A DNA stretch of 64,000 nucleotides, taken from assembly GCA_015055525.1 (NCBI GenBank), contig SVHZ01000004.1:187-64186 (forward strand). Reading direction: 5' to 3'. A model generated the notes under the pieces. That model saw only the letters and a program-made list of their open reading frames with translations. It did not search any database and was not told the DNA's origin. Each line of letters starts with the position of its first letter. Within the stretch, counting starts at the first letter, position 1. Position numbers and translations under genes: made by a program. The stretch comes from Clostridiales bacterium (GTDB taxonomy: Bacteria; Bacillota; Clostridia; Christensenellales; Borkfalkiaceae). Positions 2,764-26,989 of this stretch are shown piece after piece.

Positions 2764-2768
2764 TTATT

Positions 2769-4325
<1,557 letters not shown>

Positions 4326-4578
4326 TTCCTTAACCCCCTTTATTTCTAATATAGTTAATATTCTTATTATACAATCGATTATAACCGTTGTCAAATAGCA
4401 AAAATTAGCATAAAGTTGAAAAAAAATAGCGTTTATTTAGGAAAAGACTAAACCTTTTTCGTTGGTTTTTGTTATACGCACTTTTATTATAACAGTAACT
4501 GCGTTTAATTGCAATATAAAACTTAAACACTTGAAAGTATCTCTATTTTATGTTATTATGTAAAAAAGGAGATTTAAT

Positions 4579-5352
4579 ATGAAAATTGCTATTGTTACGG
4601 GCGCTTCGTCCGGCATGGGAAGAGAGTTCGTTGTTCAAGCCGACCAAAGATATAATTTAGATGAAATTTGGGTTATCGCTCGCCGTGAAGATAGGCTTTT
4701 AGCACTTCAAGATGAAGTTACCGCTAAAATCGTTCCTATTCCACTTGATTTAACACTTTTAGAAAGCATCGATACCCTTTCTAAAAAATTAAGCGAGGAA
4801 AAACCCGACGTTAAATTACTCGTTAACGCCAGCGGGTTTGGCAAAATGGCAAAATTTACTGAATCTGACCTTAATTCTAACGCAGGCATGTGCGACCTTA
4901 ATCTCAGAGCGCTTATCTTAATTACGCAAACCGTGCTCCCCTATATAAACGAAGGCGGAAAAATTATTCAAGTTGGCTCTATGAGTTCGTTTGAACCCGT
5001 TCCCCACCTTTCAGTTTACGCAGCAACTAAGGCTGGCGTTTTAAGTTTTTCTCGCGCGCTTGCCCACGAACTTAAAAAATCTAAAATTAAAGTTTTATGC
5101 GTTTGCCCGTACTGGGTAAAAACGGAATTTTTCGGGCGCGCAGGCGAAAAGGAAAAACTTCAAAAATTCGATATTTTATACGAATCGAATTTCGTTGTTA
5201 AAGTTGCATATAAAACTATTGACAAAACTAATAAAAACTACGTTGTTCCCGGCAAGTACGCTAAACTCTTACGAGTTATGGCAAAATTTTTAAGCCACGA
5301 CTTTATGATGAACGTTATGGACAAAATGTTCAAGTATGAAAAAACTAATTGA
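4579..5352 (+). CDS. SDR-family short-chain dehydrogenase/reductase
   Basis: 257 aa with the TGASSGMG cofactor motif and the YAATKAG (YxxxK) catalytic motif. Confidence 0.85.
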   Translation: MKIAIVTGASSGMGREFVVQADQRYNLDEIWVIARREDRLLALQDEVTAKIVPIPLDLTLLESIDTLSKKLSEEKPDVKLLVNASGFGKMAKFTESDLNSNAGMCDLNLRALILITQTVLPYINEGGKIIQVGSMSSFEPVPHLSVYAATKAGVLSFSRALAHELKKSKIKVLCVCPYWVKTEFFGRAGEKEKLQKFDILYESNFVVKVAYKTIDKTNKNYVVPGKYAKLLRVMAKFLSHDFMMNVMDKMFKYEKTN

Positions 5353-6625: not shown

Positions 6626-6634
6626 GAGCAATAA

Positions 6635-8443: not shown

Positions 8444-8444
8444 T

Positions 8445-8475
8445 AAAAAAGGAACTCAACTGAGTTCCTTTTTTT
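8445..8475. terminator. Bidirectional terminator between the GH gene and MATE-1
   Basis: 9-bp stem aggaactca/tgagttcct flanked by A6 and T7. It overlaps the last codons of MATE-1. Confidence 0.7.
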
Positions 8476-12655: not shown

Positions 12656-12762
12656 AATTTCCTCATCGGTTGCGTTATCAGTAATAGAATACCACCTAAA
12701 AATTTTTAACGCAACTTTTTAACCCCTAAAAATAAATTTATTATCAAATAAATTTGGATATG

Positions 12763-12793: not shown

Positions 12794-14047
12794 TTAATCT
12801 TTATAGATAGGGAATTTTTCGCAAAGAGCAATAACTTCAGATTTAATTTGCTCTTTCTTTTCTTCAAAATTAAAGGTTACGTCATAGATAAATTCTGCGA
12901 TTTTTTCCATTTCTGCTTCCTTAAATCCACGCGAAGTAACCGCAGGAGTACCAATTCTTACACCGCTTGTTACAAACGGACTTTGCGGGTCGTTAGGAAT
13001 TGCGTTTTTATTTAAGGTAATGTGAACTTCATCTAAACGCTTTTCAAGTTCTTTACCCGTAATACCCGTATCGATAAGGTCAACGAGCATTAAGTGGTTA
13101 TCAGTTCCGCCTGAAACGAGTTTGAAACCTTTTTTAACAAGAGCGTTGGCAAGCGCTTTTGCGTTCTTTGCAACTTGAATTTGATATTCCTTAAATTCAG
13201 GTTTTAACGCTTCGCCAAGAGCAACTGCCTTTGCTGCAATTATATGCATGAGCGGACCGCCTTGAGTTCCTGGGAAAACCGCTTTGTCAATTGCCTTTGC
13301 ATACTCTTCTTTACAAAGTATCATACCGCCACGAGGACCGCGCAAAGTCTTGTGCGTAGTAGTCGTAACAACGTCTGCATACGGAACGGGGCTTTCGTGA
13401 ACGCCGGCTGCAACTAAGCCTGCAATATGCGCCATATCAACCATTAAGTATGCGCCAACTTCATCTGCAATTTCTCTAAACTTTTTGAAATCAATAGCCC
13501 TTGCGTATGCGCTTGCGCCTGCTAAAATAAGTTTTGGCTTATGAGCAATAGCGAGTTCTCTAATTTTATCGTAATCAAGAACTTGCTCTTCTAAACTTAC
13601 TTCGTAAGGAACGATATTAAAATATTTACCAGAGATGTTAACGGGAGAGCCGTGAGATAAGTGACCGCCGTTTGCAAGTGAAAGTGAAAGAACGGTATCG
13701 CCCGGATTAAGAAGGGCGAAAAATACTGCTAAGTTTGCGTTTGCCCCGCTGTGCGGTTGAACGTTAGCGTGCTCTGCGCCGAATAATTTTTTAGCGCGTT
13801 CTCTTGCTATTTCTTCAACCTCGTCAACGTACACGCAACCGCCGTAATATCTCTTTCCGGGATAGCCTTCGGCGTACTTGTTAGTAAGCACCGTGCCAGC
13901 GGCAAGAAGTACCGCTTCGCTAACGATATTTTCAGATGCTATAAGTTCAATATTTTCTTGTTGACGATGAAGTTCTCTTTCAACTGAAACAAAAACCTCA
14001 TTGTCTAATTGTTTAAGTTTATCAAAAAACATAATTTTTTTCTCCAA
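12794..14047 (-). CDS. glyA: Serine hydroxymethyltransferase
   Basis: 417 aa with the PLP-lysine block [14 protein letters not shown] and a conserved SHMT N-terminus ([12 protein letters not shown]). Confidence 0.95.
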
Positions 14048-14084
14048 TTTGTTTGTTTAACTCAAAGTTTGTTCAATGCTCTAC

Positions 14085-14212
14085 TTTAAGGCGTTAGAAA
14101 CAAGTATTTCAAGGCTCGACAAGTGGGGGCGGGTACAATAGACCTTTTTGGTCATTGTAATCGTACACACTTGGCAGTTAACGCAGAAATACGCCGTTTT
14201 TAACGACTTAAA
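14085..14212. repeat. Dispersed ~125-nt hairpin element, copy a (type 1)
   Basis: Starts tttaaggcgttagaaac and ends gtttttaacgacttaaa, so the ends are inverted repeats. It has the central hairpin aatagacc-ttttt-ggtcatt and an internal stem caagtg/cacttg. Its terminal TTAA supplies the stop codon (14208-14210) of the upstream transporter gene. Confidence 0.8.
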
Positions 14213-15608
14213 GGAGGGTGATCATAAGTTGGCAAGCGAGTACAACTAACACAAGCGCAATAGGATAAGTTGATGCGTACGCAGACGCTACGTCTTCAGT
14301 TTTTGAAACGTGAATTAAAGTTCCAAGAGCAGGAGTAGAAGTCATACCACCGGTAATTGAACCAAGACCGTTGAGAAGAGGAAGTTTCATAAGGTACTTT
14401 GAAATAAAGAAACCTGCAAACATAGGAACAATTGTCATAACCGCGCCACCAATAAAGCCCCAAGCAACGATTGCGCCACCAAACGCTCTGATTTGTTCAA
14501 CGAGAGCAACGCCACCTTCAAAGCCTGCGCCAAGTAAGAAGAGCGCTAAACCAAATTCACGGAGAACTTTTTTAGTTCCTTCGGTAACTTCAAGAGAAAT
14601 TTTACCGATGTGGCCAAGGTGACCGAATACTAAACACATAATAAGTACGCCACCAGTCGTTCCAAGTGAGAAACATGGACCGTTATAACCTTCGCCCGAA
14701 AGGGGGATAGTAATAGAACCTAAAAGTAAACCGCAAATAACGGCTAAACCAAAAGGCATAAAACCAAACGGTTCGCACTTGAAATATTTTGAATAATCTC
14801 TTGCGTGTTCAGTTGCGCCGATTTTAAGAAGTTCTCTTTCCTTATCCATATCAACTTTTAATAATTTAGGAAGAAGTTGAACGAATAATACAACGCCTAC
14901 AACGCCAAACGGATACGCTAAAGCGTGACCTAAAGTAATTATTGATTTAAGAGAAGGATCAGCAGCGTCAACCGCAGCAGAGAAACCCGGAGTTGAAGTG
15001 AGTGCGCCAGAAAGTACGCCAGACCAAAATTCAGGGCCGTATTCGGGAGTTAAAAGAGTGCAGATTACTGCAACTAAAGTTCCCGATAAAATAATAACAA
15101 TACCTAAAACGATATAAGTTTTGAAGTTTCTTGCTAAATCTTTGAAAAAGTTAGGGCCTGCAATAAAACCAACCGAGCCTACGAATAAAATAAGACCGAT
15201 GTTTTGAAGAGGGCTAGAAAGATATTTAACAACGGTGTGAGAAGTATCTTTAATAAGGAAAGCGTTGAGAAGGGGAACGTTTTCGGGGATAATAGTACAT
15301 AAGAAACCGAAAAGTATAGCAACTAAGAATACGCCTGCCGTTCCTAAAGTTACGCCCTTAATATCAATGCTACCAAGTAAATAACCAAGCGCAATAATTA
15401 AAAAGGCTACTACGAAAAGAACGAAAGTGGTTGAAAAGTTGAATACGTTAACAACGCCTTCTTTAACCACAACGTCGCCTACGGATTTAGGGTTAATAAT
15501 AGCGCTTGCTATACACCAACCTGCAATTAAAACAACCGCTACGATTGCAATAATAGTCCATAACAATCTGCTACTTTTTTTATTTTGATTTTCCATAATT
15601 TTCTCCAA
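14208..15608 (-). CDS. AAE-family (AspT/YidE/SucE-type) transporter, short form without central RCK_C domains
   Basis: 466 aa with two homologous polytopic halves joined by a short hydrophilic linker (DMDKERELLKIGATEHARDY). Glycine-rich helices are typical of the aspartate:alanine exchanger family. Confidence 0.65.
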   Translation of the reverse strand: MEKIMENQNKKSSRLLWTIIAIVAVVLIAGWCIASAIINPKSVGDVVVKEGVVNVFNFSTTFVLFVVAFLIIALGYLLGSIDIKGVTLGTAGVFLVAILFGFLCTIIPENVPLLNAFLIKDTSHTVVKYLSSPLQNIGLILFVGSVGFIAGPNFFKDLARNFKTYIVLGIVIILSGTLVAVICTLLTPEYGPEFWSGVLSGALTSTPGFSAAVDAADPSLKSIITLGHALAYPFGVVGVVLFVQLLPKLLKVDMDKERELLKIGATEHARDYSKYFKCEPFGFMPFGLAVICGLLLGSITIPLSGEGYNGPCFSLGTTGGVLIMCLVFGHLGHIGKISLEVTEGTKKVLREFGLALFLLGAGFEGGVALVEQIRAFGGAIVAWGFIGGAVMTIVPMFAGFFISKYLMKLPLLNGLGSITGGMTSTPALGTLIHVSKTEDVASAYASTYPIALVLVVLACQLMITLL

Positions 15609-15623
15609 GTAATATTACATTAG

Positions 15624-15656
15624 TTTAGCGTTTGGCGAAATTCGCCAAACGCTAAA
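15624..15656. repeat. 33-bp perfect palindrome (16-bp arms) in the transporter leader
   Basis: tttagcgtttggcgaa-a-ttcgccaaacgctaaa, lying 16 nt upstream (minus sense) of the transporter start. Confidence 0.9.
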
Positions 15657-15696
15657 ATTATTGTTTTGTTTTGAGCAAAGTTTATTTATCCTTCAC

Positions 15697-15822
15697 TTTA
15701 AGACGTTAGAAACAAGCTAGGCAAGGCGTTTGAGATTTTGCGGAAGGGAGCGACCTACGTGGTCGCAGGAATTTCGAAAAATCGCAAAGAACAAAGCATA
15801 GCGCCGTTTATAACGGCTTAAA
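15697..15822. repeat. Dispersed ~125-nt hairpin element, copy b (type 2)
   Basis: Near-identical to copy d (38126-38251), with compensatory substitutions in the internal stem. It ends 1 nt from the stop codon of the FrdA-like gene. Confidence 0.85.
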
Positions 15823-17430
15823 TTACATATCTCCTCTTTTATAGTTAGGCAATAATTGCGGAGATACTTTACCAGTATTTACGCCTGCTTCTTTAAGTTC
15901 TTTGTTAAAGTCAGTTACGTGAGATAAAGTAAGTTTGCCAACTTTTACAGACTTACACTTTTCACTAGCATACTTACCAGCGTTTCTACCGAATACGATA
16001 ATATCAAGGAGTGAGTTACCCATAAGTCTGTTTCTACCGTGGATACCCCCTACTGCTTCGCCTGCTACGTATAAGTTTTCAACGAGCGTAGTTTGACCGT
16101 CTGCATCGATATCGATACCGCCGTTTTGATAGTGTAAAGTTGGATAAATAAGGATAGGTTCTTTTCTAATATCTATACCGTATTTACCAAACATTCTCAT
16201 CATTGCGGGAATTCTCTTTTCGATAGTGCCTTCGCCACCGATAATTTCAATCATCGGAGTATCAAGCCATACGCCTTCGCCGTCAGTAGTCTTAACGCCG
16301 TTACCACGACCTTTACATTCTCTAATGATAGTAGATGCAGTAACGTCACGAGTTTCAAGCGAATATACGAACGCTTCACCGTCTTTATTAACGAGTTGAG
16401 CGCCGAGCGAACGAACTTTTTCAGTAACGAGCGCGCCGTAAATTTGAGTGGGTTCAGCAGCGCCGGTCGGGTGATATTGTAAAGTATCAGCGTATAAGAG
16501 TTTTGCGCCTGCGCGGTAAGCGAGAACTAAGCCGTCTGCCGTTGCGCCGTAGTGGTTAGAAGTTGGGAATCCTTGATAGTGAAGTCTTCCTGCGCCACCG
16601 GTTGCAATAATAACGGTTTTTGCCTTAGCAATTAAGATTTCGCCAGTTTCCATATTTTGTAAAACTGCGCCTGCTGCTCTACCTTGATCGTCTTTGATAA
16701 TTTCAATCGCTGCAGTAAAGTCAACAACGGGGATTCCCCTATTCATAACTTCATCACGAAGAGTTCTCATGATTTCAGCGCCAGAATAGTCTTTACAAGC
16801 GTGCATTCTCTTTCTTGAAGTACCGCCACCGTGAGTGGTAACCATCTCGCCGTCAGCAGTTTTATCGAACATTACGCCGAGATCAGAAAGCCAACGAATA
16901 GCGTCTGGTGCTTCTTTAACGAGTTTTTCAAGAAGGCAAGGTTTAGCGGCAAAGTGACCGCCACCGAACGCGTCAAGATAGTGCTGAGCAGGGCTATCGT
17001 TAGGCTTATCAGCCGCTTGGATACCGCCTTCTGCCATCATTGAGTTAGCGTCGCCAATTCTAAGTTTAGTTACGATCATAACGTTTGCGCCGTTACCGTG
17101 AGCAGTAATTGCGGCAGAAGAACCTGCGCCACCGCCACCGATAACTAAAACGTCAACGTCATAGTCGGGATTTTTAAGGTCGATTTTCTTAGGGTCAAGT
17201 CTTGACTTGCCTTGTAAAAGATCTGCAAGTTCGTGAAGAACTTTTTCACCTTTGTTAGGGCCTACTTGTAAAGTTTCGTAAGCGCCTTCGATATAGTCGG
17301 GGTGGAATTCTTTAAGAACTGCATCTTTTTGTTCAGCAGTCATTCTTGCGTGAAGATTTTTAAGTCTTTCGCTTCTTGACGCTTCTACTTTCTTTATTGA
17401 ATCAAGTTGTTCTTGAGTATATTGATACAT
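15823..17430 (-). CDS. Soluble FrdA/SdhA/TfrA-type FAD flavoprotein (fumarate reductase catalytic subunit-like)
   Basis: 535 aa with the dinucleotide fold VLVIGGGGAGSSAA, plus MAEGGIQAA, the active-site LQYHPTG and GRNRLMGNSLLDIIVFG. A ~90-aa N-terminal extension is present. Confidence 0.75.
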   Translation of the reverse strand: MYQYTQEQLDSIKKVEASRSERLKNLHARMTAEQKDAVLKEFHPDYIEGAYETLQVGPNKGEKVLHELADLLQGKSRLDPKKIDLKNPDYDVDVLVIGGGGAGSSAAITAHGNGANVMIVTKLRIGDANSMMAEGGIQAADKPNDSPAQHYLDAFGGGHFAAKPCLLEKLVKEAPDAIRWLSDLGVMFDKTADGEMVTTHGGGTSRKRMHACKDYSGAEIMRTLRDEVMNRGIPVVDFTAAIEIIKDDQGRAAGAVLQNMETGEILIAKAKTVIIATGGAGRLHYQGFPTSNHYGATADGLVLAYRAGAKLLYADTLQYHPTGAAEPTQIYGALVTEKVRSLGAQLVNKDGEAFVYSLETRDVTASTIIRECKGRGNGVKTTDGEGVWLDTPMIEIIGGEGTIEKRIPAMMRMFGKYGIDIRKEPILIYPTLHYQNGGIDIDADGQTTLVENLYVAGEAVGGIHGRNRLMGNSLLDIIVFGRNAGKYASEKCKSVKVGKLTLSHVTDFNKELKEAGVNTGKVSPQLLPNYKRGDM

Positions 17431-17444
17431 CTTTTTACCCCTCC

Positions 17445-18119
17445 TTACTTTTCAATATCTCTCGTATTGTAAAGCGCTTTTTGCTCTTCGAGAGATTTGT
17501 TCATAATGTCTGCCATGCTTTCGTCGTGCTTGCCTTCGTTGATTTCTTGAACTCTTTCAAGAAGGTGAGCGCACTCAGGAGCAATGTATTTACCGTAAAG
17601 ACGGCGAGCGAGAATTGCAACTTGCGGATGAGAAATACCAGCCGGGCATCTTGAAGAACAAAGACCGCACATAATACAGTCGAAAGATTCTTCCGCGCAC
17701 TTAGCGTATTCACCGCGTTGAGCGTAAGCTATGTATTGCATAGTTTTAAGTTCTTGCGGGCAAGCCTTAGTACAAGCGTTACAGCCGATACAACTATAAA
17801 TTTCAGGATAAAGTTGCATCATAATTTGTTCAGTAGGTTTAACCTTTTGAATATCGTAAACTTGCTTTACGAGTGGGAAGAAAGGAAGAGTTGCTACGTA
17901 CATTCCTTCTTCAACTTGTTGTTGACAAGCAAGGCAAGTTTTGAGTTCGGTTTTACCCTTAATTCTATATAAAGTTGCGCACGCGCCACAGAAGCCGTTA
18001 CGGCAACCGCAACCGCGAACGAGTTGATAGCCTGCATACTCCATAGCCTTCATAATAGTAAGACTTTGAGGTACTTCGTATTTTTTACCGAAAAAGTAAA
18101 CGTTTACCATTTTTTCCAT
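17445..18119 (-). CDS. FrdB/SdhB-like iron-sulfur subunit (2Fe-2S plus two Cys clusters)
   Basis: 224 aa with CGCRNGFCGACA, CIGCNACTKACP and CIMCGLCSSRCP. It has no CCG domain. Confidence 0.75.
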   Translation of the reverse strand: MEKMVNVYFFGKKYEVPQSLTIMKAMEYAGYQLVRGCGCRNGFCGACATLYRIKGKTELKTCLACQQQVEEGMYVATLPFFPLVKQVYDIQKVKPTEQIMMQLYPEIYSCIGCNACTKACPQELKTMQYIAYAQRGEYAKCAEESFDCIMCGLCSSRCPAGISHPQVAILARRLYGKYIAPECAHLLERVQEINEGKHDESMADIMNKSLEEQKALYNTRDIEK

Positions 18120-18150
18120 AATAGTTTTCTCCTAGTCCTTATTTCCGATT

Positions 18151-18978
18151 TTAATACTCTGAAGGAAGTTCTTCGAGTTGGTCCATACGGAATACAGGAC
18201 CGTCTTTACAAATGTATTGATTGCCTACGTTACAACGACCGCATTTACCAATACCGCATTTCATTCTAAATTCAAGCGTAGTAAATACTTGAGTCTTTTC
18301 AAATCCAAGTTCTAAAAGGGCTTGGAGTGTGAACTTAATCATTATCGGCGGACCGCAAAGTACCGCTGTTCTATCCGTAGGGATATTAACTTCTTTAACG
18401 TACGCAGGTACGAAACCAACGTGGCCGTCCCAACCGTCTTGCGGGCGGTCAATCGTAAGATATACGTTGAAGTCTTTTTCGTTTACCCACTCTTGTTGAA
18501 TTTCTTTGAAATCAACTAAATCGTCCATTGAACGTGAGCCGTAAACGATATCAACCGTACCGTAATCTTCCCTATGCGCTCTAACGTAGTTAATTACTGA
18601 ACGGAGTGGCGCTAAGCCTATACCACCTGCTATAAAGAGTAAGTTTTTACCCTTGAAGTCTTTGGTTACGGGGAAACCGTTGCCATAAGGTCCACGAATT
18701 GTGATTTGTTGACCAACTTCGGCTTGGTGAAGCCAAGAAGTTACGCAACCGCATTTCTTTATAGAAAATTCCATAAATTCGGTGTTCGTTGGAGATGAAG
18801 TAATTGAGAACATCGCTTCGCCTACGCCGGGGATAGAAAGCATCGCGCATTGACCGGGCATGTGTTCAAAAGCCTTCTTTCCGTCGGGAGTAACTACTCT
18901 AAAAGTCTTTACGTCGGGGGTGTCTCTTCTTATGTCGGTTATTACGCCGATTACTGGAATAAGCGCTTCGTTAGTCAT
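18151..18978 (-). CDS. flxA: FAD/NAD(P)H-binding oxidoreductase with C-terminal 2Fe-2S (FlxA / AsrB / HydG-like)
   Basis: 275 aa with a ferredoxin-reductase-type fold (LLFIAGGIGLAPL) and C-terminal CGIGKCGRCNVG. Confidence 0.7.
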   Translation of the reverse strand: MTNEALIPVIGVITDIRRDTPDVKTFRVVTPDGKKAFEHMPGQCAMLSIPGVGEAMFSITSSPTNTEFMEFSIKKCGCVTSWLHQAEVGQQITIRGPYGNGFPVTKDFKGKNLLFIAGGIGLAPLRSVINYVRAHREDYGTVDIVYGSRSMDDLVDFKEIQQEWVNEKDFNVYLTIDRPQDGWDGHVGFVPAYVKEVNIPTDRTAVLCGPPIMIKFTLQALLELGFEKTQVFTTLEFRMKCGIGKCGRCNVGNQYICKDGPVFRMDQLEELPSEY

Positions 18979-19996
18979 TGATTTTACCTCCGATTTTCTT
19001 AATTACTTTTACGATATTGAGTGATTGCGGGCATTTTTTAACGCATCTTCCGCAACCTACGCAACCATACTCGCCGTCGTTATTAGACGGGAAGTAGCAA
19101 AGTTTGTGCATAAATCTTTGACGGTAGCGTTGCATTTGAGTTTTTCTCGGATTTTCCGCCGCCATCTTAGTAAAGTCAGAATACATGCAAGAATCCCAGC
19201 ATCTAAATCTCTTTACACCTGCGTTAGTTTCAAAATCTCTAATGTCAAAGCATTGGCAAGTTGGGCAAACGAAAGTACAAGTTCCGCAACCCAAGCAAGC
19301 TTTAGAAAGTTCTTCCCACTCAGGTCTATCAAAGAGTTTCATAAGGTTTTCGCCCTTGAAGTCTGAAAGGTCGAGATTTACAAAGGGAAGCGCGTCTATC
19401 TTTTTAACGATTTCAGCCTTTTCATCTTCTACCTTCTTAGCATCGCCGTCTTCAAGACAAGTGAGTTTTGAAAGCAATTCGCTACCCTTTTCAGTAAGCG
19501 CTTCAAAGAACATTTCTTCATTTGCGATAGTTGCTTGAATATCGCCCTTGGGGTTTGACGCATCTACGCCGAATACTTTACAGAAACATGAACTTTCAGG
19601 ATTGTTACAAGCAAGAGTTATTACGGTAACCGCATCTCTCTTTGCCTTATACATAGTGTCAACAGGTTCGGCAAGGAACACTTTATCTAAAACTTCAAAA
19701 CTCTTAAAATCACAACCGCGAACGCCGAAGAGTACGAAAGGTACTGCTTGTTTTCTAGCGTCTTTGATTTCAATGTTTTTACCCGAAGTCTTAAACTCCA
19801 TCATATCTTCAGATTGAGGGAAGAATAAATCTTTAGCAGATTTTACGGTTTGAAGTGATTTAATATCAACGTCAACGCCGTCTTCGAATTTTTTGAAGTT
19901 CGTTGCGCCCGCAACTTTAACGGGAAGGTAAAGTTCTTGAGCGCTCGCTATTTCCTTATATAATAAGTCTAAATTCTTAATTGCTATCTTTTTCAT
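18971..19996 (-). CDS. flxB: Poly-ferredoxin iron-sulfur protein (FlxB / AsrA / HydB-like)
   Basis: 341 aa with CLGCGTCTFVCPTCQC and CVGCGRCVKKCP. It overlaps flxA by 8 nt. Confidence 0.65.
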   Translation of the reverse strand: MKKIAIKNLDLLYKEIASAQELYLPVKVAGATNFKKFEDGVDVDIKSLQTVKSAKDLFFPQSEDMMEFKTSGKNIEIKDARKQAVPFVLFGVRGCDFKSFEVLDKVFLAEPVDTMYKAKRDAVTVITLACNNPESSCFCKVFGVDASNPKGDIQATIANEEMFFEALTEKGSELLSKLTCLEDGDAKKVEDEKAEIVKKIDALPFVNLDLSDFKGENLMKLFDRPEWEELSKACLGCGTCTFVCPTCQCFDIRDFETNAGVKRFRCWDSCMYSDFTKMAAENPRKTQMQRYRQRFMHKLCYFPSNNDGEYGCVGCGRCVKKCPQSLNIVKVIKKIGGKIND

Positions 19997-20970
19997 CAGT
20001 TGTTACCTCCGAAAACTTCGCTCGGCTCTGCATCGCCTTTTGTAAAGTTAGTGAGCGGACCTTTAGACTCAGTGTCTTCACCTGCTTGATATTCGCCGTA
20101 AAGTCTATTGATATCGCTAATAAACTTTCTGTTAAGAAGATGAAGGGGAATGTGTTGAGGACAAACTCTTGAACACTCGCCACAGTCAGTACATCTTCCC
20201 GCAACGTGGAACGCTCTAATTATGTGGAACATCTTTTCTTCAAAACTATCGCTATTTGCCTTGCTTGCTATACCCGAATTATCGTTATCGAATACGCATT
20301 TAGTACAAGTACAAGCAGGACATACGTTTCTACAAGCGTTACAACGAATACAGTTTGAAAGTTGATCTTTCCAGAACGCGTATCTTTCATCGGCAGTCAT
20401 TGACTCTAACTTTTTAACCATTTCAAAACGGTCGATTGACGGAGTTCTCTTTTCGTTAATTGAAATAACTTCGTCGTAAGAAAGAAGTTTCTTTTCGCAA
20501 ACTGAACATTTACCTAAAACGATTTCGTCTTTCTTGAAAGCGTAATCTTTGCCGTTTGCCTTGATAGTAACTTCTTCAACCGTTTCAACAACGCCGTCTA
20601 CTATTTCAATGCCGTTTTCTTTAAGTTTAGAATTGTCAACTTTACCTTGGCACTCAACGCCTACCGTGTAAACGTTGTCTTTATTAATCCTGTGCTCTTT
20701 GATAAGTTGATTAAAACTGTAACTATCGCAAGGTTTTAAGAAAACTAAAATCTTGCCTTCTTTTTTAGTTTCGCCAACTAAATATTTTGAAAGGTTTGCT
20801 CCGCAAAAAGCGTTGTAAACGAAATCTTTAAGGGAATCTTCAGAAGTAAACACGCAAGGTTCAACGTCAAAACCTAATTCGCCTTTCTTCCAACCGAGAA
20901 CTCTATTTACTTCGCCCGAAGATAAAAGCGCTTTTGCTTTTTCAATCATCATAGATTCTATTCTTTGCAT
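19996..20970 (-). CDS. flxC: 4Fe-4S dicluster protein (FlxC-like)
   Basis: 324 aa with CIRCNACRNVCPACTC and CTDCGECSRVCP. It overlaps flxB by 1 nt. Confidence 0.65.
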   Translation of the reverse strand: MQRIESMMIEKAKALLSSGEVNRVLGWKKGELGFDVEPCVFTSEDSLKDFVYNAFCGANLSKYLVGETKKEGKILVFLKPCDSYSFNQLIKEHRINKDNVYTVGVECQGKVDNSKLKENGIEIVDGVVETVEEVTIKANGKDYAFKKDEIVLGKCSVCEKKLLSYDEVISINEKRTPSIDRFEMVKKLESMTADERYAFWKDQLSNCIRCNACRNVCPACTCTKCVFDNDNSGIASKANSDSFEEKMFHIIRAFHVAGRCTDCGECSRVCPQHIPLHLLNRKFISDINRLYGEYQAGEDTESKGPLTNFTKGDAEPSEVFGGNN

Positions 20971-21398
20971 CTTAAATCCTCCAAGCGTTTATTTTCTCCA
21001 AGAGATGCAACTTTGCTAGCAAAGTCGTTCATAACGGCAGAGAATTTTGCGCCTTCAGCCGCAGATACCCACTCAACGCGAGTTCTTTCTCTTTCAATTC
21101 CAAGATAGTCGAGCATACTGAAAAGTAAACTCATTCTTCTTCTTGTGTAATAGTTACCAGTCGTGTAGTGGCAATCGCCTGGGTGACAACCGCATAAAAT
21201 TACGCCGTCCGCTCCCCTTTGGAAAGCCTTTAATACGAACATTGGGTTTACTCTACAAGAGCAAGGTACTCTTATAATTTTTACTTCTGCGGGGTAAGAA
21301 AGTCTTGAAGAACCTGCTAAGTCCGCGCCCGCGTAACTACACCAGTTACAACAAAATGCAACGATCAATGGTTTTTTAGCGTTATTTATCTCTTGCAT
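20958..21398 (-). CDS. flxD: MvhD/FlxD-type hydrogenase delta-subunit-like iron-sulfur protein
   Basis: 146 aa with AFCCNWCSYAGADLAG and GCHPGDCHY, the hallmarks of the MvhD/FlpD family. Confidence 0.8.
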   Translation of the reverse strand: MQEINNAKKPLIVAFCCNWCSYAGADLAGSSRLSYPAEVKIIRVPCSCRVNPMFVLKAFQRGADGVILCGCHPGDCHYTTGNYYTRRRMSLLFSMLDYLGIERERTRVEWVSAAEGAKFSAVMNDFASKVASLGENKRLEDLRCKE

Positions 21399-23377
21399 AT
21401 CGCGTCTACCTCCGCCATAATTTGCTTGTTGCTAAATCCTTTAAGATCCATTGCGCCAGACGGACAAGCAACCGTACATGCGCCACAACCTTGACATACC
21501 GCTTCGTTAACGCTAGCAACTCTTCTAGTTTCGGTTTTGCCTCCACCGATTCTAAATTCTTTGTCAACGTAAGTGATTGCGCCGTAAGGACAAACGTTCG
21601 CGCAAACCGAACAACCCGTACAAAGCATTTCGTCAGAGTGAGAAACGCAAGCGTTACATTTAAGTTTATCTTTACTCAAAAGACCTACTACTTTCGCAGC
21701 GCAAGCACTCGCTTGAGATACCGTTTCAGGAATATCTTTCGGGCCTTGACATACGCCTGATAAGAAAATGCCTGCCGTAGGACTTTCTACGGGACGGAGT
21801 TTTGCGTGCGCTTCGGTAAGGAAGTTGTTAGTATCAATACTTGCAGTTACCATAGTTGCAATATTTCTAACCGACGGGTTAGGTTCTATTGCCGCAGCAA
21901 GTACTACTAAGTCGGAAGGAATTACTACTTGTTCATTGTTGATAAGGTCTGAGCCTTGAACCATAAGTTTGCCGTTTTCTTCGTAAACTTTACCAACCAT
22001 ACCTTTGATATAGTCAACGCCGTATTGTTCAACCGCTCTTCTAAAGAACTCGTCGTAGTTCTTGCCGGGAGTTCTAACGTCTATGTAGAATACGTGAACT
22101 TCGGTGTTAGGATATTTTTCACGAATAAGCATTGCGTGTTTAGCAGTATACATACAGCAAATCTTACTGCAATACGGCTTACCGCAACCTGACGTATCTC
22201 TTGAACCAACGCATTGAATAAAGGTGATAACCTTAGGTTCTTTGTGGTCTGACGGGCGAACTAAGTGACCATCCGTAGGACCAGCCGCGTTCATAAGTCT
22301 TTCAAGTTCAAGTGAAGTTACAACGTCGGGATAGCTTGAATAACCAAATTCGTTGAAGTTTTCAAGTGAGATAGGCTTGTAACCCGTAGCAACTACGATT
22401 GCGCCGTATTCTCTTTCGATGATTTCATCTTTTTGAGTGTAATCAATAGCGTTTACTTGACAGTTCATTGCGCAAAGACCACACTTGCCGTTTTTAAGTT
22501 TCAAGCATTGTTCAGGGTCGATGATTGCAACGTTCGGGATTGCTTGAGCAAACGGAATATAAATTGCAGGGCGCTTGTTAAGACCCATGTTGAAATCGTT
22601 AAGACCTTTCTTTGAAGGGCATTTTTGCATACATACGCCACAGCCCGTACATTTCTTTTCGTCAACGAATCTTGCTTTTCTTCTAATTTGAACTTTGAAG
22701 TTACCAACGAAACCTTTAACCGATTCGATTTCACTAAAAGTCATAATGTCGATTTTTTCGTTTTGAGCGCAATCAACCATCTTCGGCGTTAAAATACAAG
22801 CCGCACAGTCGAGCGTGGGGAACGTTTTATCGAGTTTTGCCATGTTACCGCCGATAGTTGGAGAAGTTTCAACGATGTCAACTTCATAACCCGCTTCCGC
22901 GATATCTAAAGCAGATTGAATACCCGCAATACCACCACCGATAACGAGCGCTCTTTTAATAACGGCGCTTTCACCCGCGGTGAGCGGAGCGTTAAGTTTA
23001 AGTTTTGCGATAGCGCTTCTACCTAAAACTATTGCTTTTTCAGTAGCCTCTTCAATATCCTTGTGAATCCAAGAACATTGTTCCCTTATGTTTGCAATTT
23101 CAACCATATAGGGGTTAAGACCTGCGCTTTCACAAGTCTTTCTAAAAGTCGCTTCGTGCATTCTTGGAGAACAAGAACATACTACGACGCCCGTTAAGCC
23201 GTGCTCTTTAATCGCGTTTCTAATAAGTGCTTGGCCGTTTTCAGAACACATATATTGATAGTTTTCAGAAATCACTACGCCAGGCTCTAACCTTAACACG
23301 TCGGCAACTTTCTTTACGTCAACCGTCGCTGCGATATTGCTACCGCACCAACATACAAATACACCAATCTTTTGCAT
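21386..23377 (-). CDS. hdrA: Heterodisulfide reductase subunit A-like flavoprotein
   Basis: 663 aa with the FAD fold VIGGGIAGIQSALD, several CxxCxxCxxxCP ferredoxin motifs and an N-terminal Cys-rich domain (VFVCWCGSNIA). Confidence 0.85.
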   Translation of the reverse strand: MQKIGVFVCWCGSNIAATVDVKKVADVLRLEPGVVISENYQYMCSENGQALIRNAIKEHGLTGVVVCSCSPRMHEATFRKTCESAGLNPYMVEIANIREQCSWIHKDIEEATEKAIVLGRSAIAKLKLNAPLTAGESAVIKRALVIGGGIAGIQSALDIAEAGYEVDIVETSPTIGGNMAKLDKTFPTLDCAACILTPKMVDCAQNEKIDIMTFSEIESVKGFVGNFKVQIRRKARFVDEKKCTGCGVCMQKCPSKKGLNDFNMGLNKRPAIYIPFAQAIPNVAIIDPEQCLKLKNGKCGLCAMNCQVNAIDYTQKDEIIEREYGAIVVATGYKPISLENFNEFGYSSYPDVVTSLELERLMNAAGPTDGHLVRPSDHKEPKVITFIQCVGSRDTSGCGKPYCSKICCMYTAKHAMLIREKYPNTEVHVFYIDVRTPGKNYDEFFRRAVEQYGVDYIKGMVGKVYEENGKLMVQGSDLINNEQVVIPSDLVVLAAAIEPNPSVRNIATMVTASIDTNNFLTEAHAKLRPVESPTAGIFLSGVCQGPKDIPETVSQASACAAKVVGLLSKDKLKCNACVSHSDEMLCTGCSVCANVCPYGAITYVDKEFRIGGGKTETRRVASVNEAVCQGCGACTVACPSGAMDLKGFSNKQIMAEVDAICKR

Positions 23378-23392
23378 TGTCTACTCCCTCGA

Positions 23393-23779
23393 TTATTTGT
23401 TTAATTTTCTGAACATACTTACGAGAAGTTGTTGTGGGATCGTTTCGTCAATCATTTGAGGAACGGTTTCAGCAGGAACTTTGTTTCCGCCTTGTTGTCT
23501 TATAACTTCTTGGCGAACTGCTTCAATAACGTTTGCAGGAGCAACTCCACGCGGGCATCTTTCTACGCAAGCAAAACAACTTAAACAAGTGTAGAGAGAT
23601 TTGCTGCTCAAAAGTTTATCAATTTCGCCTTTTTCTATATAAGTTACGAACTGATGTGGCTTAATATCCATATCGGCATACGCTGGGCATCTACCCGAAC
23701 ATTTACCGCATTTCATACATTTTCTAACGTCAGTTCCACTTCTTTCTTTAATGAGTTCAACTTGTTCTTTCTTTTCCAT
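23393..23779 (-). CDS. hdrC: Heterodisulfide reductase subunit C-like (4Fe-4S dicluster)
   Basis: 128 aa with CMKCGKCSGRCP and CLSCFACVERCP. Confidence 0.8.
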   Translation of the reverse strand: MEKKEQVELIKERSGTDVRKCMKCGKCSGRCPAYADMDIKPHQFVTYIEKGEIDKLLSSKSLYTCLSCFACVERCPRGVAPANVIEAVRQEVIRQQGGNKVPAETVPQMIDETIPQQLLVSMFRKLNK

Positions 23780-23782
23780 ATC

Positions 23783-24565
23783 TTACTCCTTTACGCCAAG
23801 CGCTTCGGCAAGAAGTTCCGTAAAGTAATATACGGGAACGTCACTATTGCCGTTTTCAGTAAGGTTATACATACAAAGCGGACAAGCGGTAACGATTTTT
23901 TCCGCACCTGCGTTTTTTGCCGAATCCATAACTTTACTGCTCTTTTTAACCGCTATTTCTTTGTTGGTTGCAGATACGTATGCACCACAGCACTCGTTTC
24001 TGAACGCGTATTTAACGGGGGTTGCTCCAATTGCAGTTATAAAATCTTCGATGATGCTTGGATTTTCAGGATTGTCAAACGCGAGCGTTTGAGATGGGCG
24101 AAGAAGTAAACAGCCGTAATAAGCACCGATCTTTTGACCTTTGAGCGGATTTACAACCGCCGCTTTAAGTTTATCAAAGCCAACGTAATCTCTTAAAAGT
24201 TCAAGATAGTGAATAACGTCCGTTTCGCCTTCGTAAGCCTCTTCAAGAGCGAGATAGTTGTTTGCTTTCAAACGAATATTAGCGTCGTTTTTCATATCGT
24301 CGTTCACTCTTTTGAGAACGTGGTGACAAGCAGAGCAAAGAGTGAGAAGTTTTCCGTCTTCTGCCTTTGCGCTTGCCAAAGTTCTAACGGCTGAAAGTTT
24401 AGTAGCAACTTCGTCACGAGAAACGGGGTAAACCGCACCGCAACATTGCCACTCTTTGATTTCTTCAAAGTCAACGCCTAATTTTTCAAGGCACTTTCTT
24501 CCGTATAAGTCTAAATCTTTTGCTTTAGTTTTAAGGGTACAACCCGGATAATAAGAAAATTTCAT
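23783..24565 (-). CDS. hdrB: Heterodisulfide reductase subunit B-like (two CCG domains)
   Basis: CCG motifs WQCCGAVYP and NECCGAYVS. The ATG at 24565 is preferred over the GTG at 24571 and sits 2 nt after the fumC stop (TGAttATG). Confidence 0.8.
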   Translation of the reverse strand: MKFSYYPGCTLKTKAKDLDLYGRKCLEKLGVDFEEIKEWQCCGAVYPVSRDEVATKLSAVRTLASAKAEDGKLLTLCSACHHVLKRVNDDMKNDANIRLKANNYLALEEAYEGETDVIHYLELLRDYVGFDKLKAAVVNPLKGQKIGAYYGCLLLRPSQTLAFDNPENPSIIEDFITAIGATPVKYAFRNECCGAYVSATNKEIAVKKSSKVMDSAKNAGAEKIVTACPLCMYNLTENGNSDVPVYYFTELLAEALGVKE

Positions 24566-24567
24566 AA

Positions 24568-25932
24568 TCACACCATTTGTTCAGGTTTGAACACCTTGTC
24601 AAATTCTTCCGCGCTTAAGAAACCAAGAGAAACGCACGCTTCTTTTAAGCTGATGTTTTCCTTGTGCGCAAGTTTAGCAGTTTTAGCCGCGTTTTCATAT
24701 CCGATGTAAGGGTTAAGAGCGGTTACGAGCATCAAAGAATTATATAAGTTGAATTTCATCTTTTCTTTGTTTGCCTTAATTCCAGACGCGCAGTTTAAGT
24801 TGAACGAACGAATACCGTCTGCAAGCAACTTAGCCGATTGTAAGAAATTATAAATGATAACGGGCATAAATACGTTAAGTTCAAAATTGCCTTGTGATGC
24901 GGCAAAACCAACAGCCGCGTCGTTACCCATTACTTGAACTGCAACCATTGTAAGCGATTCGCATTGAGTTGGGTTAACTTTACCGGGCATTATTGAAGAA
25001 CCCGGTTCGTTTTCAGGAATAAAGATTTCGCCAAGACCGCAACGTGGACCGCTTGAGAGCCATCTAACGTCGTTTGCAATCTTCATAAGGTCAGCGGCGA
25101 GCGCTTTCAACGCACCGTGAGCAAACACGATTTCATCTTTTGCAGTTAAGGCGTGGAACTTATTGTCCGCCGTCTTGAAAGTTTTACCTGTTAAGCGAGA
25201 AACTTCTTCCGCAACCGCAGTATCAAAACCCTTTGGAGCGTTAAGACCCGTGCCAACGGCAGTACCGCCGAGCGCAAGTTCTTTAAGACCGGGGAGAGAA
25301 AGTTCAAGCATGCCCTTTGATTTTTCAAGCATATTTCTCCAACCGCTAATTTCTTGAGAGAAACTTACGGGAACAGCGTCTTGAAGGTGAGTTCTACCAC
25401 TCTTAACGATTCCTTCGTTTTCCTTTTCTAAACGCTTGAATACTTCAATGAGCGCGTCGATTTCAGGGAATAACTTATCTTCAATTGCAATAACCGCAGC
25501 AATGTGCATTGCAGTTGGGAAAGTATCGTTACTAGATTGGCTCTTATTAATATCGTCGTTTGGATGAAGAAGTTTTTTGCCTGCGATTTCGTTACCACGG
25601 TTTGCTATAACTTCGTTGGCGTTCATATTTGATTGAGTGCCAGAACCCGTTTGCCAAACTACGAGCGGGAAATGCCCGTTGAGTTCGCCCGAGATAACTT
25701 CGTCACACGCTTTAGAAATTGCGTTTAACTTTTCATCGTCAATTTTACCTAAACGGTGGTTTGCATAAGCAGCAGCCTTTTTAAGTATACCGAAAGCGTG
25801 AGTAATTTCTCTTGGCATAACTTCTCCGCCAATTTTGAAGTTTTGATAACTTCTTTGAGTTTGGGCAGCCCAGTACCTATCTGCAGGAACTTGCATTTCA
25901 CCCATCGTATCTTTTTCAATGCGGTATTCCAT
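24568..25932 (-). CDS. fumC: Class II fumarate hydratase
   Basis: 454 aa with the signature GSSIMPGKVNPTQCE (the fumarase TQCE form, not the aspartase form). Confidence 0.9.
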   Translation of the reverse strand: MEYRIEKDTMGEMQVPADRYWAAQTQRSYQNFKIGGEVMPREITHAFGILKKAAAYANHRLGKIDDEKLNAISKACDEVISGELNGHFPLVVWQTGSGTQSNMNANEVIANRGNEIAGKKLLHPNDDINKSQSSNDTFPTAMHIAAVIAIEDKLFPEIDALIEVFKRLEKENEGIVKSGRTHLQDAVPVSFSQEISGWRNMLEKSKGMLELSLPGLKELALGGTAVGTGLNAPKGFDTAVAEEVSRLTGKTFKTADNKFHALTAKDEIVFAHGALKALAADLMKIANDVRWLSSGPRCGLGEIFIPENEPGSSIMPGKVNPTQCESLTMVAVQVMGNDAAVGFAASQGNFELNVFMPVIIYNFLQSAKLLADGIRSFNLNCASGIKANKEKMKFNLYNSLMLVTALNPYIGYENAAKTAKLAHKENISLKEACVSLGFLSAEEFDKVFKPEQMV

Positions 25933-26001
25933 AGTTTCTCCTTGTTAAGTTAAATTCTATTGAATTTATAGTCGTTTTATTTTTTCGTTTCTTTAACGGG
26001 A

Positions 26002-26949
26002 TTACACGTTAATTTGATTAATTACAGCTTTCATAGCCTCGCCAGATGCTACGAGTTTCTCAACTTCTTCTTCAGTTAAGGTAGGAGTTAAGGTCGTTTT
26101 AATTCCATCAACGCCTAAAACTGCAGGGATTGAAATGCAAACGTCTTTAATTCCGTATTCGCCTTTCATTAAAACGGATACGCAAACAACGCTATCAACG
26201 CCTGAATATAAGCACTTGCAAATGTAAGCAACCGCAGCGGCAACGCCGTTGTAAGTTGCGCCCTTTCTAGAAATGATAATTCCGCCAGACTTTCTAATGT
26301 ATTCGGCAACTTCTTCTTTATCGTAAGGTTCAATCTTTATAGAAGGATCGGTAACAACGTCAGCATACTCGTCAATATTCACGCCTGCGATTTTTACCTT
26401 TGACCAAGGAACGAAAGAAGTATCGCCGTGTTCACCTAAAACGTCAGCGTCAACTTGAAGAGGTGATACCTTATAAATTTCAGAAAGCCTTGTTCTTAAA
26501 CGCGCCGTATCAAGGCTAGTTCCCGAACCGATAATTCTGTTAGTTGGAATATTAGTAATTTTATGGAAAGTGTAAGTTAAAACGTCAACGGGGTTAGCAA
26601 CGATAACGTATAACGCATCAGGGCAAACCGCAGAAATTTTAGGAGCAATGCTCTTTAAGATGTTAACGTTGATTTGAGCAAGGTCAATTCTCGTTTGACC
26701 AGGCTTTCTTGCTACGCCCGACGTAATTATTACAATATCAGAACCTTTAGCGTCTTCATAATCGCCTGCTCTTACGATTGCGGGATTAAGGAACGGAGTT
26801 GCTTGATAAATATCCATCGCTTCGCCAAGAGCCTTTTCGTTATTAACGTCGATAAATACGATTTCCGACGCCGTGCCTTGCGCTACGAGAAGATATCCTA
26901 TTGATGAGCCTACTGCGCCTGCGCCAATGATTGTAATCTTTCTTTTCAT
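26002..26949 (-). CDS. mdh: LDH-like malate dehydrogenase
   Basis: 315 aa with the Rossmann motif ITIIGAGAVGS. The substrate-specificity loop GVARKPGQTR carries Arg (MDH type) rather than the Gln seen in LDHs. Confidence 0.75.
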   Translation of the reverse strand: MKRKITIIGAGAVGSSIGYLLVAQGTASEIVFIDVNNEKALGEAMDIYQATPFLNPAIVRAGDYEDAKGSDIVIITSGVARKPGQTRIDLAQINVNILKSIAPKISAVCPDALYVIVANPVDVLTYTFHKITNIPTNRIIGSGTSLDTARLRTRLSEIYKVSPLQVDADVLGEHGDTSFVPWSKVKIAGVNIDEYADVVTDPSIKIEPYDKEEVAEYIRKSGGIIISRKGATYNGVAAAVAYICKCLYSGVDSVVCVSVLMKGEYGIKDVCISIPAVLGVDGIKTTLTPTLTEEEVEKLVASGEAMKAVINQINV

Positions 26950-26971
26950 TTTCTTTTCTCCAATATTTTAT

Positions 26972-26989
26972 TTGTTAAATTTTTAACAA
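26972..26989. promoter_or_regulatory. Rex operator (TTGTTAA-N4-TTAACAA)
   Basis: The sequence ttgttaaatttttaacaa is a perfect match to the clostridial Rex-box consensus. It lies 22 nt upstream of the mdh ATG. Confidence 0.7.

Follow-up and report, generated by a model that had tools for sequence, protein, structure and literature searches.

A candidate Flx-Hdr-coupled soluble fumarate reductase encoded by a conserved gene cluster of gut Clostridia

We describe a gene cluster that links a predicted soluble fumarate reductase to an Flx-Hdr electron transfer module. It lies in a stretch of 64,000 nucleotides from an uncultured gut Clostridia genome (GenBank assembly GCA_015055525.1, contig SVHZ01000004.1; the whole stretch is referred to here as the window) and comprises 12 co-directional minus-strand genes, mdh-fumC-hdrBCA-flxDCBA-frdBA-transporter, at positions 14208 to 26949. 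On the basis of sequence and gene order, we consider it likely that Flx-Hdr is functionally coupled with FrdBA, whereas the case for electron bifurcation to ferredoxin appears close to evenly balanced. We also lean toward regarding the eleven genes from mdh to frdA as a single Rex-controlled operon encoding the reductive branch from oxaloacetate to succinate. An earlier note on this DNA had proposed such a quinone-independent, possibly bifurcating fumarate reductase; that interpretation emerges here as plausible and well supported by comparative genomics, while biochemically unproven.

Conservation of the cluster and its alternative partners

In a scan for relatives that was restricted to one genome per species, at least 565 genomes encode a relative of the FrdA-like flavoprotein, and the best 80 of these loci were mapped. 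They display 76 to 96% FrdA identity to the window and come from gut and rumen metagenome-assembled genomes (MAGs) labeled as Christensenellaceae, Clostridia, Candidatus Scatosoma, Oscillospiraceae, and Ruminococcus. The nine-gene core from hdrB to frdA is complete and collinear in all 58 related loci with sufficient upstream flank, so the hdr-flx-frd arrangement goes beyond chance. The core is also tightly packed, with median intergenic distances of −13 to +21 nucleotides (nt), including 15 nt between flxA and frdB and 12 nt between frdB and frdA. The co-occurrence of frdBA with hdr and flx genes, for which the earlier note had suggested a neighborhood survey, is therefore absolute within the clade (58/58), and it recurs in reordered form in a distant lineage. 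There (L084), hdrA-mvhD-hdrC-hdrB-frdB-frdA are found downstream of a four-gene 2-oxoacid:ferredoxin oxidoreductase (kor), and the encoded proteins share 57% (FrdA), 51% (FrdB), 49% (HdrA), and 40% (HdrB) identity with those of the window.

Relatives in marine Gammaproteobacteria (L081 to L083, 9366-12891; 48% identity) are found with a different partner. In these relatives, frdB-frdA show translational coupling to a NuoF-like gene containing Complex1_51K and NADH_4Fe-4S domains, and no hdr or flx genes were found beside them. This pairing suggests that the physiological donor of the module is NADH, supplied via interchangeable input modules. The marine frdB-frdA-NuoF-like set is also a candidate three-subunit NADH:fumarate reductase that appears to be undescribed.

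In 15 of the 80 loci, a group B [FeFe] hydrogenase (scoring as high as 579 bits against TIGR04105) is encoded next to or near the cluster, either directly after frdA (L018, L030, L034, L037, L048, L049, L050, L068, and L070) or within a few kilobases (L014, L031, L041, L044, L059, and L062). Hydrogenases of this type reoxidize ferredoxin in gut bacteria (PMC12578642). In the window itself, tblastn returned no group B [FeFe] hydrogenase anywhere in the 64 kb. More tentatively than for the bifurcation itself, we propose that FrdBA might represent a portable, quinone-independent fumarate reductase cartridge mounted on Flx-Hdr, Kor plus HdrA-MvhD-HdrCB, or NuoF-like inputs, with the Flx-Hdr version being bifurcating and occurring across hundreds of uncultured species of the Christensenellales and Oscillospirales.

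An atypical FrdA-like flavoprotein and FrdB-like subunit

Among NCBIfam models, the FrdA-like protein scores best against TfrA (332 bits, cut-off 718), followed by SdhA/FrdA (about 283 bits), NadB (270 bits, cut-off 453), and flavocytochrome c (215 bits), and it has no NCBIfam match to AprA. Its AlphaFold2 (AF2) model has high confidence along the whole chain (pLDDT 89.9, pTM 0.89), including at the N terminus discussed below. Foldseek searches with this model place Escherichia coli FrdA (1kf6_A) at the top, with Mycobacterium smegmatis Sdh1 SdhA and flavocytochrome c3 fumarate reductases among the other top matches and NadB at rank 49. Scores and structural ranking agree in grouping the protein with Sdh/Frd/Tfr and not with NadB or AprA, two families that the earlier note had named as examples of outcomes that would speak against a fumarate reductase.

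The active site is strictly conserved. In an alignment with solved SdhA/FrdA structures and 21 relatives, the catalytic residues H320, T322, E337, R340, R361, H433, and R468 are invariant, forming a set composed of the HPT His, Thr-Glu, Arg, the “RD” proton-donor Arg, the “HY” His, and the “NRL” Arg. The same alignment shows an invariant Asn129 in place of the His that binds FAD covalently in SdhA/FrdA. The FAD is thus predicted to be noncovalently bound, which favors fumarate reduction; in FrdA/SdhA, noncovalent FAD supports the reduction of fumarate but not the oxidation of succinate. The protein departs from SdhA/FrdA in two further features. The aligned region stops near residue 495 of 535, with no PF02910 (Succ_DH_flav_C) match at the C terminus, and a conserved 90-residue N-terminal extension specific to this family (conserved H43, P44, G57, N59, and G61) has neither a Pfam match nor a sequence relative in the PDB (best E value, 0.09).

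The FrdB-like subunit harbors an invariant SdhB-type 2Fe-2S motif (C39, C44, C47, and C65; CxxxxCxxC...C) and two complete, invariant CxxCxxCxxxC motifs. Because the second of these cluster motifs has all four Cys residues, the protein is expected to bind a 4Fe-4S cluster where classical FrdB has 3Fe-4S. Its similarity to SdhB/FrdB/TfrB is confined to the N-terminal domain, weak, and below the cut-offs (Fer2_3, 20.8 against 27; TIGR00384, 36 against 88; TfrB, 43 against 385). The designation “FrdA/FrdB-like” of the earlier note is thus borne out for the fumarate-site residues and has to be qualified by the Asn-for-His replacement, the missing Succ_DH_flav_C domain, the N-terminal extension, and the substitution of 4Fe-4S for 3Fe-4S.

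Membership in several described families was considered and rejected. NadB is excluded by its score and by the iron-sulfur partner gene located 14 nt upstream of frdA, which is fused to it in the relative P0122, and AprA by the missing NCBIfam match. A complex II-type FrdAB/SdhAB would have the C-terminal domain, the covalent FAD His, a 3Fe-4S FrdB, and an in-cluster anchor, none of which are found here. For TfrAB, both subunits fall below the cut-offs, and the FrdB-like protein lacks the fused CCG domain. The fusion protein P0122 (727 aa; L085, 5250-7433) was recovered from a gut MAG, and its FrdB part shows 35% identity to the window protein over all 224 residues. No hdr or flx genes were found in the approximately 5 kb upstream of P0122, and the contig ends just downstream.

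Malate dehydrogenase, fumarase, and Rex control

The two genes preceding the core extend the predicted pathway back to oxaloacetate. Within the mapped set, fumC lies immediately upstream of the core in 53 loci, and a lactate dehydrogenase (LDH)-type gene precedes fumC in approximately 35. The mdh product passes the L-LDH cut-offs of TIGR01771 and NF000824 and fails the NCBIfam malate dehydrogenase (MDH) models. However, it carries an Arg (G-V-A-R-K-P-G) at the Gln102 discriminator position of the LDH fold, and residue 102 (Gln or Arg) is the established specificity switch between LDH and MDH. Arg102 is found in all 34 cluster-linked homologs, which share 45 to 92% identity, and this invariance down to 45% identity argues that the LDH-clade product works as an oxaloacetate reductase. 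Judging from these model scores, automatic annotation likely misnames mdh as L-lactate dehydrogenase.

The earlier note had described the cluster as fronted by Rex. Within the window, TTGTTAAATTTTTAACAA is the sole match to the Rex operator with 0 mismatches, with 0 expected from 100 shuffles. It fits the clostridial operator TTGTTAANNNNTTAACAA, is located in the promoter region, and is accompanied by a rex gene elsewhere in the window, whose product is the likely regulator of the operon. The most closely related loci, 11 in total, retain a perfect Rex box 32 to 62 nt upstream of mdh. In more distant loci, a search upstream of mdh or fumC for TTGTTAA and TTGTGAA half-sites with at most 2 mismatches gave nothing convincing, which indicates that Rex control is specific to this clade or that the operator has diverged. 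The description thus applies to the window and its closest relatives. Rex control would fit an NADH-consuming pathway, as Rex operators are typical of NADH-consuming fermentative genes.

The Flx-Hdr module and a proposed electron path

The FlxABCD-HdrABC subunit set is complete (HdrA, HdrB, HdrC, FlxD, FlxA, FlxB, and FlxC), with flx contiguous with hdr. HdrA aligns over its full length with the bifurcating methanogen HdrA (5odc_A, 663 bits) and is a candidate bifurcating flavoprotein. HdrB matches methanogen HdrB (8rvv_B, 124 bits), and both of its CCG motifs, reported in the earlier note, are readable in the translation as CX31-34CC...CXXC. FlxB and FlxA show similarity to the beta (9nez_B, 134 bits) and gamma (9nez_C, 199 bits) subunits of Pyrococcus furiosus sulfhydrogenase I (SHI), which are its NAD(P)H-diaphorase subunits. 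In addition, the N terminus of the FrdB-like protein, HdrC, and the C terminus of HdrB tile methanogen TfrB, a single polypeptide that partners a fumarate-reducing flavoprotein, at positions 19-94, 129-220, and 414-487, respectively, which provides a domain-fusion argument for a direct electron path between FrdB and HdrC/HdrB.

In the mechanism we propose, FlxA would oxidize NADH, and FlxB, FlxC, and FlxD would carry the electrons on to the FAD of HdrA. From there, the high-potential branch would run via HdrC and HdrB to FrdB (2Fe-2S and two 4Fe-4S clusters), the FrdA FAD, and fumarate, involving neither a quinone nor a free thiol carrier, and the low-potential branch would reduce ferredoxin. 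The net equation would read 2 NADH + fumarate + 2 Fd(ox) → 2 NAD+ + succinate + 2 Fd(red), where Fd is ferredoxin. With textbook potentials of −320 mV for NADH, +30 mV for the fumarate/succinate couple, and −420 to −500 mV for ferredoxin, this reaction would yield roughly −33 to −48 kJ/mol, comparable to known bifurcating systems. The reduced ferredoxin would be spent on H2 or an ion gradient, and reducing fumarate would thereby allow a quinone-free fermenter both to conserve energy and to dispose of NADH as H2.

Several observations weigh against this proposal. Bifurcation, the ferredoxin partner, and the specificity for NADH versus NADPH are features that we infer, and full-text literature searches returned no purification, assay, or biochemical data for any such complex. 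Both the FrdA-like and FrdB-like proteins fall under every curated NCBIfam cut-off, so fumarate is assigned as the substrate from conserved residues and context. Most family members with no more than 48% identity are found in unrelated contexts without Hdr, which restricts functional inference to the Hdr-linked clade, and the NuoF-like partner in one clade implies that the FrdBA module works without Hdr. The intact CCG motifs of HdrB would also permit a disulfide substrate. Finally, the AF2 model of the FrdB-like protein, built on a 14-sequence alignment, has a mean pLDDT of 49 and is too poor for docking.

Alternative explanations

The explanation that competes best, although we consider it unlikely, is a soluble, nonbifurcating NADH:fumarate reductase in which Flx and Hdr relay both NADH electrons to FrdBA and no ferredoxin is reduced. 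Direct NADH:fumarate reduction is made plausible by the pairing of FrdBA with a simple NuoF-like subunit in marine Gammaproteobacteria, and a characterized soluble NADH-dependent fumarate reductase exists in the form of the Hydrogenobacter thermophilus ABCDE enzyme, as summarized in PMC13147460. However, keeping seven extra subunits in 58/58 loci would be a costly relay when one NuoF-like subunit suffices elsewhere, and approximately 67 kJ/mol would be wasted. The full-length HdrA with its high score to a bifurcating enzyme and the recurrence of a ferredoxin-oxidizing hydrogenase as a neighbor likewise argue for bifurcation.

Less probable still is that Flx-Hdr reduces a separate disulfide carrier, such as a DsrC-like protein or a low-molecular-weight thiol, with FrdBA being thiol-linked or independent and merely co-transcribed. 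The completeness of both CCG motifs is in line with this, as are the DsrC acceptor proposed for Desulfovibrio Flx-Hdr (Ramos et al. 2015, as cited in PMC7282089) and the Endoriftia model, which permits a DsrC-like shuttle (PMC11636981). Yet the FrdB-like protein, unlike TfrB, has no CCG domain for thiol oxidation, no DsrC-like or other small open reading frame (ORF) is present in the cluster, and the adjacency of hdrB and frdB survives rearrangement of the gene order.

Fumarate might also not be the substrate of the FrdA-like protein, which could instead use, for example, another enoate or L-aspartate; the cluster would then encode no fumarate reductase. We regard this as improbable, to a slightly greater degree than a disulfide carrier. 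While the protein scores below all curated cut-offs, with NadB just about 60 bits under TfrA, while relatives at 40 to 48% identity occur in unrelated contexts, and while PDB matches of the FAD_binding_2 family include urocanate reductase, the dicarboxylate-binding and proton-donor residues are all invariant and NadB has no Fe-S partner. The context also favors fumarate: fumC lies immediately upstream in 53 loci, the Arg102 MDH is present, and the collinear operon of a proven succinate producer, described below, holds the sole candidate fumarate reductase put forward for that organism.

A menaquinol:fumarate reductase, with HdrB and HdrC serving as a type E-like (SdhE) peripheral anchor and HdrA/Flx being separate, is very improbable: although the top NCBIfam match of HdrB is the 8-methylmenaquinol:fumarate reductase anchor SdhE (150 bits), this score is far under the cut-off of 500 and nearly level with that for HdrB itself (141 bits, also under its cut-off), the three hdr genes adjoin one another and are closely packed with flx, and there is no evident membrane segment. 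To our knowledge, Christensenella is described as quinone-free.

Relation to known systems

A bifurcating fumarate reductase has reportedly been proposed before for a “succinate operon” of Pseudoclostridium thermosuccinogenes, in a 2019 preprint by Koendjbiharie and van Kranenburg. The same proposal is found in a later account of this cultured, thermophilic succinate producer of the Bacillota, also named Hungateiclostridium thermosuccinogenes (PMC7282089). The operon comprises a fumarate hydratase gene, seven Flx-Hdr genes, two fumarate reductase genes, and a small hypothetical gene; it is co-regulated, shifting approximately four-fold with CO2 supply, and the inhibition of succinate formation by H2 fits ferredoxin coupling (PMC7282089). 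Its expression amounts to roughly 2,400 to 12,700 FPKM (fragments per kilobase per million; PMC7282089 and its supplement).

We compared this operon with the window by gene order and by gene sizes taken from the supplement coordinates of PMC7282089. Both share the order fumC-hdrBCA-flxDCBA-frdBA and the proposed mechanism, and the sizes are close (P. thermosuccinogenes versus window: frdA, 1603 versus 1608 nt; frdB, 676 versus 675; hdrB, 784 versus 783; fumC, 1366 versus 1365; five-gene flxA-to-hdrA block, 5348 versus 5227). They differ downstream, where a 250-nt hypothetical gene takes the place of the AAE transporter of the window, and upstream, where neither a Rex box nor an Arg102 mdh is documented for P. 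thermosuccinogenes. They also differ in their hosts, a cultured thermophile versus uncultured gut and rumen Clostridia. Since the two are collinear and the proposal came earlier, the window cluster adds to a proposed, uncharacterized kind. The earlier note knew of no characterization of such wiring in Bacillota; it had already been proposed there, and a biochemical characterization was not found in the literature searched.

Outside Bacillota, Candidatus Endoriftia persephone and Thioflavicoccus mobilis carry tfrAB with flxABCD-hdrABC and korABCD, for which a bifurcation hypothesis exists (PMC6315080, PMC11636981, PMC13147460). These likewise show an AB-type fumarate reductase clustered with Hdr-Flx, and the L084 layout resembles theirs. 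They differ from the window in serving an autotrophic reductive tricarboxylic acid (rTCA) cycle in Gammaproteobacteria and in having kor genes interspersed, and in Endoriftia tfrAB is not co-expressed with the rest of the cluster (PMC11636981). In Desulfovibrio vulgaris, FlxABCD-HdrABC is proposed as an NADH-oxidizing, flavin-based bifurcating module with DsrC as the acceptor (Ramos et al. 2015, via PMC7282089). The seven subunit types are identical and contiguous in both, but the window has no DsrC in the cluster, has FrdBA attached, and follows the order hdrBCA-flxDCBA.

Methanogen TfrAB resembles the window enzyme in being soluble and independent of quinone. TfrA is the top curated family for the FrdA-like protein, and TfrB joins FrdB-, HdrC-, and HdrB-like (CCG) parts that are separate in the window. 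In contrast, the FrdA-like protein is missing the C-terminal domain and is extended at its N terminus, the FrdB-like protein has no fused CCG domain, and the TfrAB donor is CoM-SH/CoB-SH, whereas that of the window enzyme is presumably NADH through Flx-Hdr. H. thermophilus FrdABCDE provides a biochemically proven example of a soluble, multisubunit, NADH-linked fumarate reductase without a membrane anchor. It is said to consist of five subunits (Miura et al. 2008), compared with nine in the window, and to have no HdrA/MvhD/Flx set, and we know of no report of bifurcation for this enzyme. The thermodynamic principle proposed here is that of the characterized flavin-based bifurcating enzymes MvhAGD-HdrABC and Bcd-EtfAB, in which ferredoxin reduction is powered by exergonic electron transfer to a high-potential acceptor; in the window, however, the donor would be NADH via Flx rather than H2 via Mvh, and the acceptor fumarate rather than heterodisulfide or crotonyl-CoA.

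Cluster layout

The gene layout corresponds in full to that described in the earlier note (Table 1). All twelve genes are co-directional on the minus strand, and translational coupling is visible in the fumC stop codon, which lies 2 nt before the hdrB ATG, as well as in the overlaps of hdrA/flxD (13 nt), flxD/flxC (13 nt), flxC/flxB (1 nt), and flxB/flxA (8 nt). The start of hdrB is the ATG at 24565, with the GTG chosen by the ORF tool (24571) located upstream of it. The remaining junctions within the operon are short (hdrB-hdrC, 3 nt; hdrC-hdrA, 15; flxA-frdB, 31; frdB-frdA, 14; mdh-fumC, 69). All quoted motifs (GVARKPG, GSSIMPGKVNPTQCE, GGGIAG, HPTG, and RLMGNSLLD) are present in the translations, Pfam and NCBIfam scans agree with each named family, and the ORFs of the cluster include no FrdC/FrdD-type anchor. 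No tandem repeats were found within the cluster, and an Rfam scan of the window returned two tRNAs only, with no riboswitch in the 5′ regions.

Table 1. Coordinates of the cluster genes and associated elements in the window
Feature	Position	Strand	Supporting matches or description
mdh, LDH-type malate dehydrogenase	26002-26949	-	Pfam Ldh_1_N and Ldh_1_C
fumC, class II fumarase	24568-25932	-	TIGR00979, 746 bits (cut-off 665); Pfam Lyase_1 and FumaraseC_C
hdrB, HdrB-like, two CCG domains (two noncubane 4Fe-4S motifs)	23783-24565	-	PF02754, twice
hdrC, HdrC-like 2x[4Fe-4S] subunit	23393-23779	-	Pfam Fer4_8; TIGR03290 HdrC, 66 bits
hdrA, FAD and multiple 4Fe-4S clusters	21386-23377	-	NF040770, 793 bits; Fer4 domains; GGGIAG
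flxD, FlxD/MvhD-like 2Fe-2S subunit	20958-21398	-	PF02662 FlpD, 185 bits
flxC, FlxC-like iron-sulfur protein	19996-20970	-	Pfam 4Fe-4S dicluster, residues 204-274
flxB, FlxB-like iron-sulfur protein (AsrA/sulfhydrogenase beta type)	18971-19996	-	PF17179 Fer4_22
flxA, FlxA-like NAD(P)H/FAD/2Fe-2S entry subunit	18151-18978	-	PF00175 NAD_binding_1, PF00970 FAD_binding_6, PF10418 DHODB_Fe-S_bind
frdB-like, iron-sulfur subunit (1x 2Fe-2S, 2x 4Fe-4S)	17445-18119	-	Fer2_4 and Fer4; Cys motifs
frdA-like, flavoprotein	15823-17430	-	PF00890 FAD_binding_2, 246 bits, residues 93-474
Candidate AAE-family transporter, short	14208-15596 (listed ORF to 15608)	-	PF06826 Asp-Al_Ex, two stretches
rex, redox-sensing repressor gene (likely regulator)	36129-36752	-	PF06971 and PF02629
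Rex operator, perfect palindrome TTGTTAAATTTTTAACAA	26972-26989	.	22 nt upstream of the mdh start codon
Repeated intergenic element, copy	15650-15830	-	Hairpin just after the frdA stop (15803-15817) to promoter-like TTGCCT-18-TAAAGT
Perfect 15-3-15 palindrome TTTAGCGTTTGGCGAAATTCGCCAAACGCTAAA	15624-15656	.	About 20 nt upstream of the transporter ribosome-binding site

The transporter and adjacent intergenic elements

The last gene of the cluster is more loosely attached. The transporter most likely starts at the ATG at 15596, which has a GGAG ribosome-binding site upstream. It resembles the AAE family, to which the earlier note had assigned it, with PF06826 (204 bits) in two stretches and TIGR01625 matching twice, yet it has no match to TrkA_C, the central pair of AspT/SucE/YidE, and is approximately 90 residues shorter than AspT/YidE. 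A gap of 214 nt, the sole sizeable gap in the cluster, separates it from frdA and contains no ORF longer than 27 aa. Its identity across loci ranges from 41 to 87%, and it is absent or replaced in about one quarter of the loci extending past frdA. This low conservation and its absence or replacement in other loci, together with the gap, a weak hairpin, a promoter-like site of its own, and the palindrome described below, lead us to treat the transporter as accessory and not as part of the core, at variance with its inclusion in the cluster by the earlier note. It may be a separately promoted, variable accessory and a candidate exporter or antiporter of succinate or another dicarboxylate.

The gap contains one copy of an intergenic element of approximately 150 to 180 nt. 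Its long copies (15650-15830 and 38106-38254) are 87% identical, and a partial copy is found at 14052-14104. The 22-mer core CTTGTTTCTAACGYCTTAAAGT occurs three times, compared with 0.01 expected. Each copy opens with a short hairpin immediately behind a stop codon, includes another hairpin (GCGACCA..AGGTCGC), and closes with a promoter-like site. Partial copies also occur at other positions in relatives, namely, L001 (twice, between mdh and fumC), L004, and L005. The element has no Rfam match; it may represent either a cassette combining terminator and promoter or a mobile repeat of small size. The perfect palindrome next to it may be an operator or a hairpin in the 5′ untranslated region (5′-UTR); it is absent from all 89 related loci.

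Other features of the window

An origin-type neighborhood spans 39661-53505, with parB/parA (39661-41350), jag (46038-46835), yidC (46841-48052), and dnaN (48918-50018). The G+C content is very low (27 to 28%) at 48 to 52 kb, and among ORFs of at least 150 aa none of dnaA size lies next to dnaN. Three tandem MatE-family efflux genes (8456-12655) are located directly downstream of glyA (12794-14047). Two large ORFs, at 6635-8443 (602 aa) and 33843-35810 (655 aa), have no Pfam match at an E value of ≤1e-6.

Significance

Compared with the earlier proposals, what the present analysis adds is the breadth of this arrangement among uncultured Clostridia of gut and rumen, the unusual features of FrdA and FrdB, and a natural FrdB-FrdA fusion. 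It also adds the pairing with NuoF-like and Kor-Hdr modules, an MDH of LDH type with Arg102, Rex control that is specific to one clade, and the recurrent hydrogenase neighbor. Public annotation describes the key subunits just as “FAD-binding protein” and “4Fe-4S dicluster domain-containing protein,” so reconstructions of hydrogen and succinate flows in the gut and rumen that are based on frdABCD probably miss this route. Because the cultured P. thermosuccinogenes expresses its operon strongly, the bifurcation hypothesis is directly testable.

If bifurcation is true, fumarate would join crotonyl-CoA, heterodisulfide, and a few others as high-potential acceptors driving ferredoxin reduction, and for quinone-free Clostridia the fermentation to succinate would become a means of conserving energy and of fueling H2 production. 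Many of the carriers of an FrdA-like relative (at least 565 species-level genomes) are Christensenellaceae and Oscillospiraceae of human and ruminant guts. Should the cartridge proposal also hold, health-associated gut fermenters would turn NADH into H2 and conserve energy without a respiratory chain.

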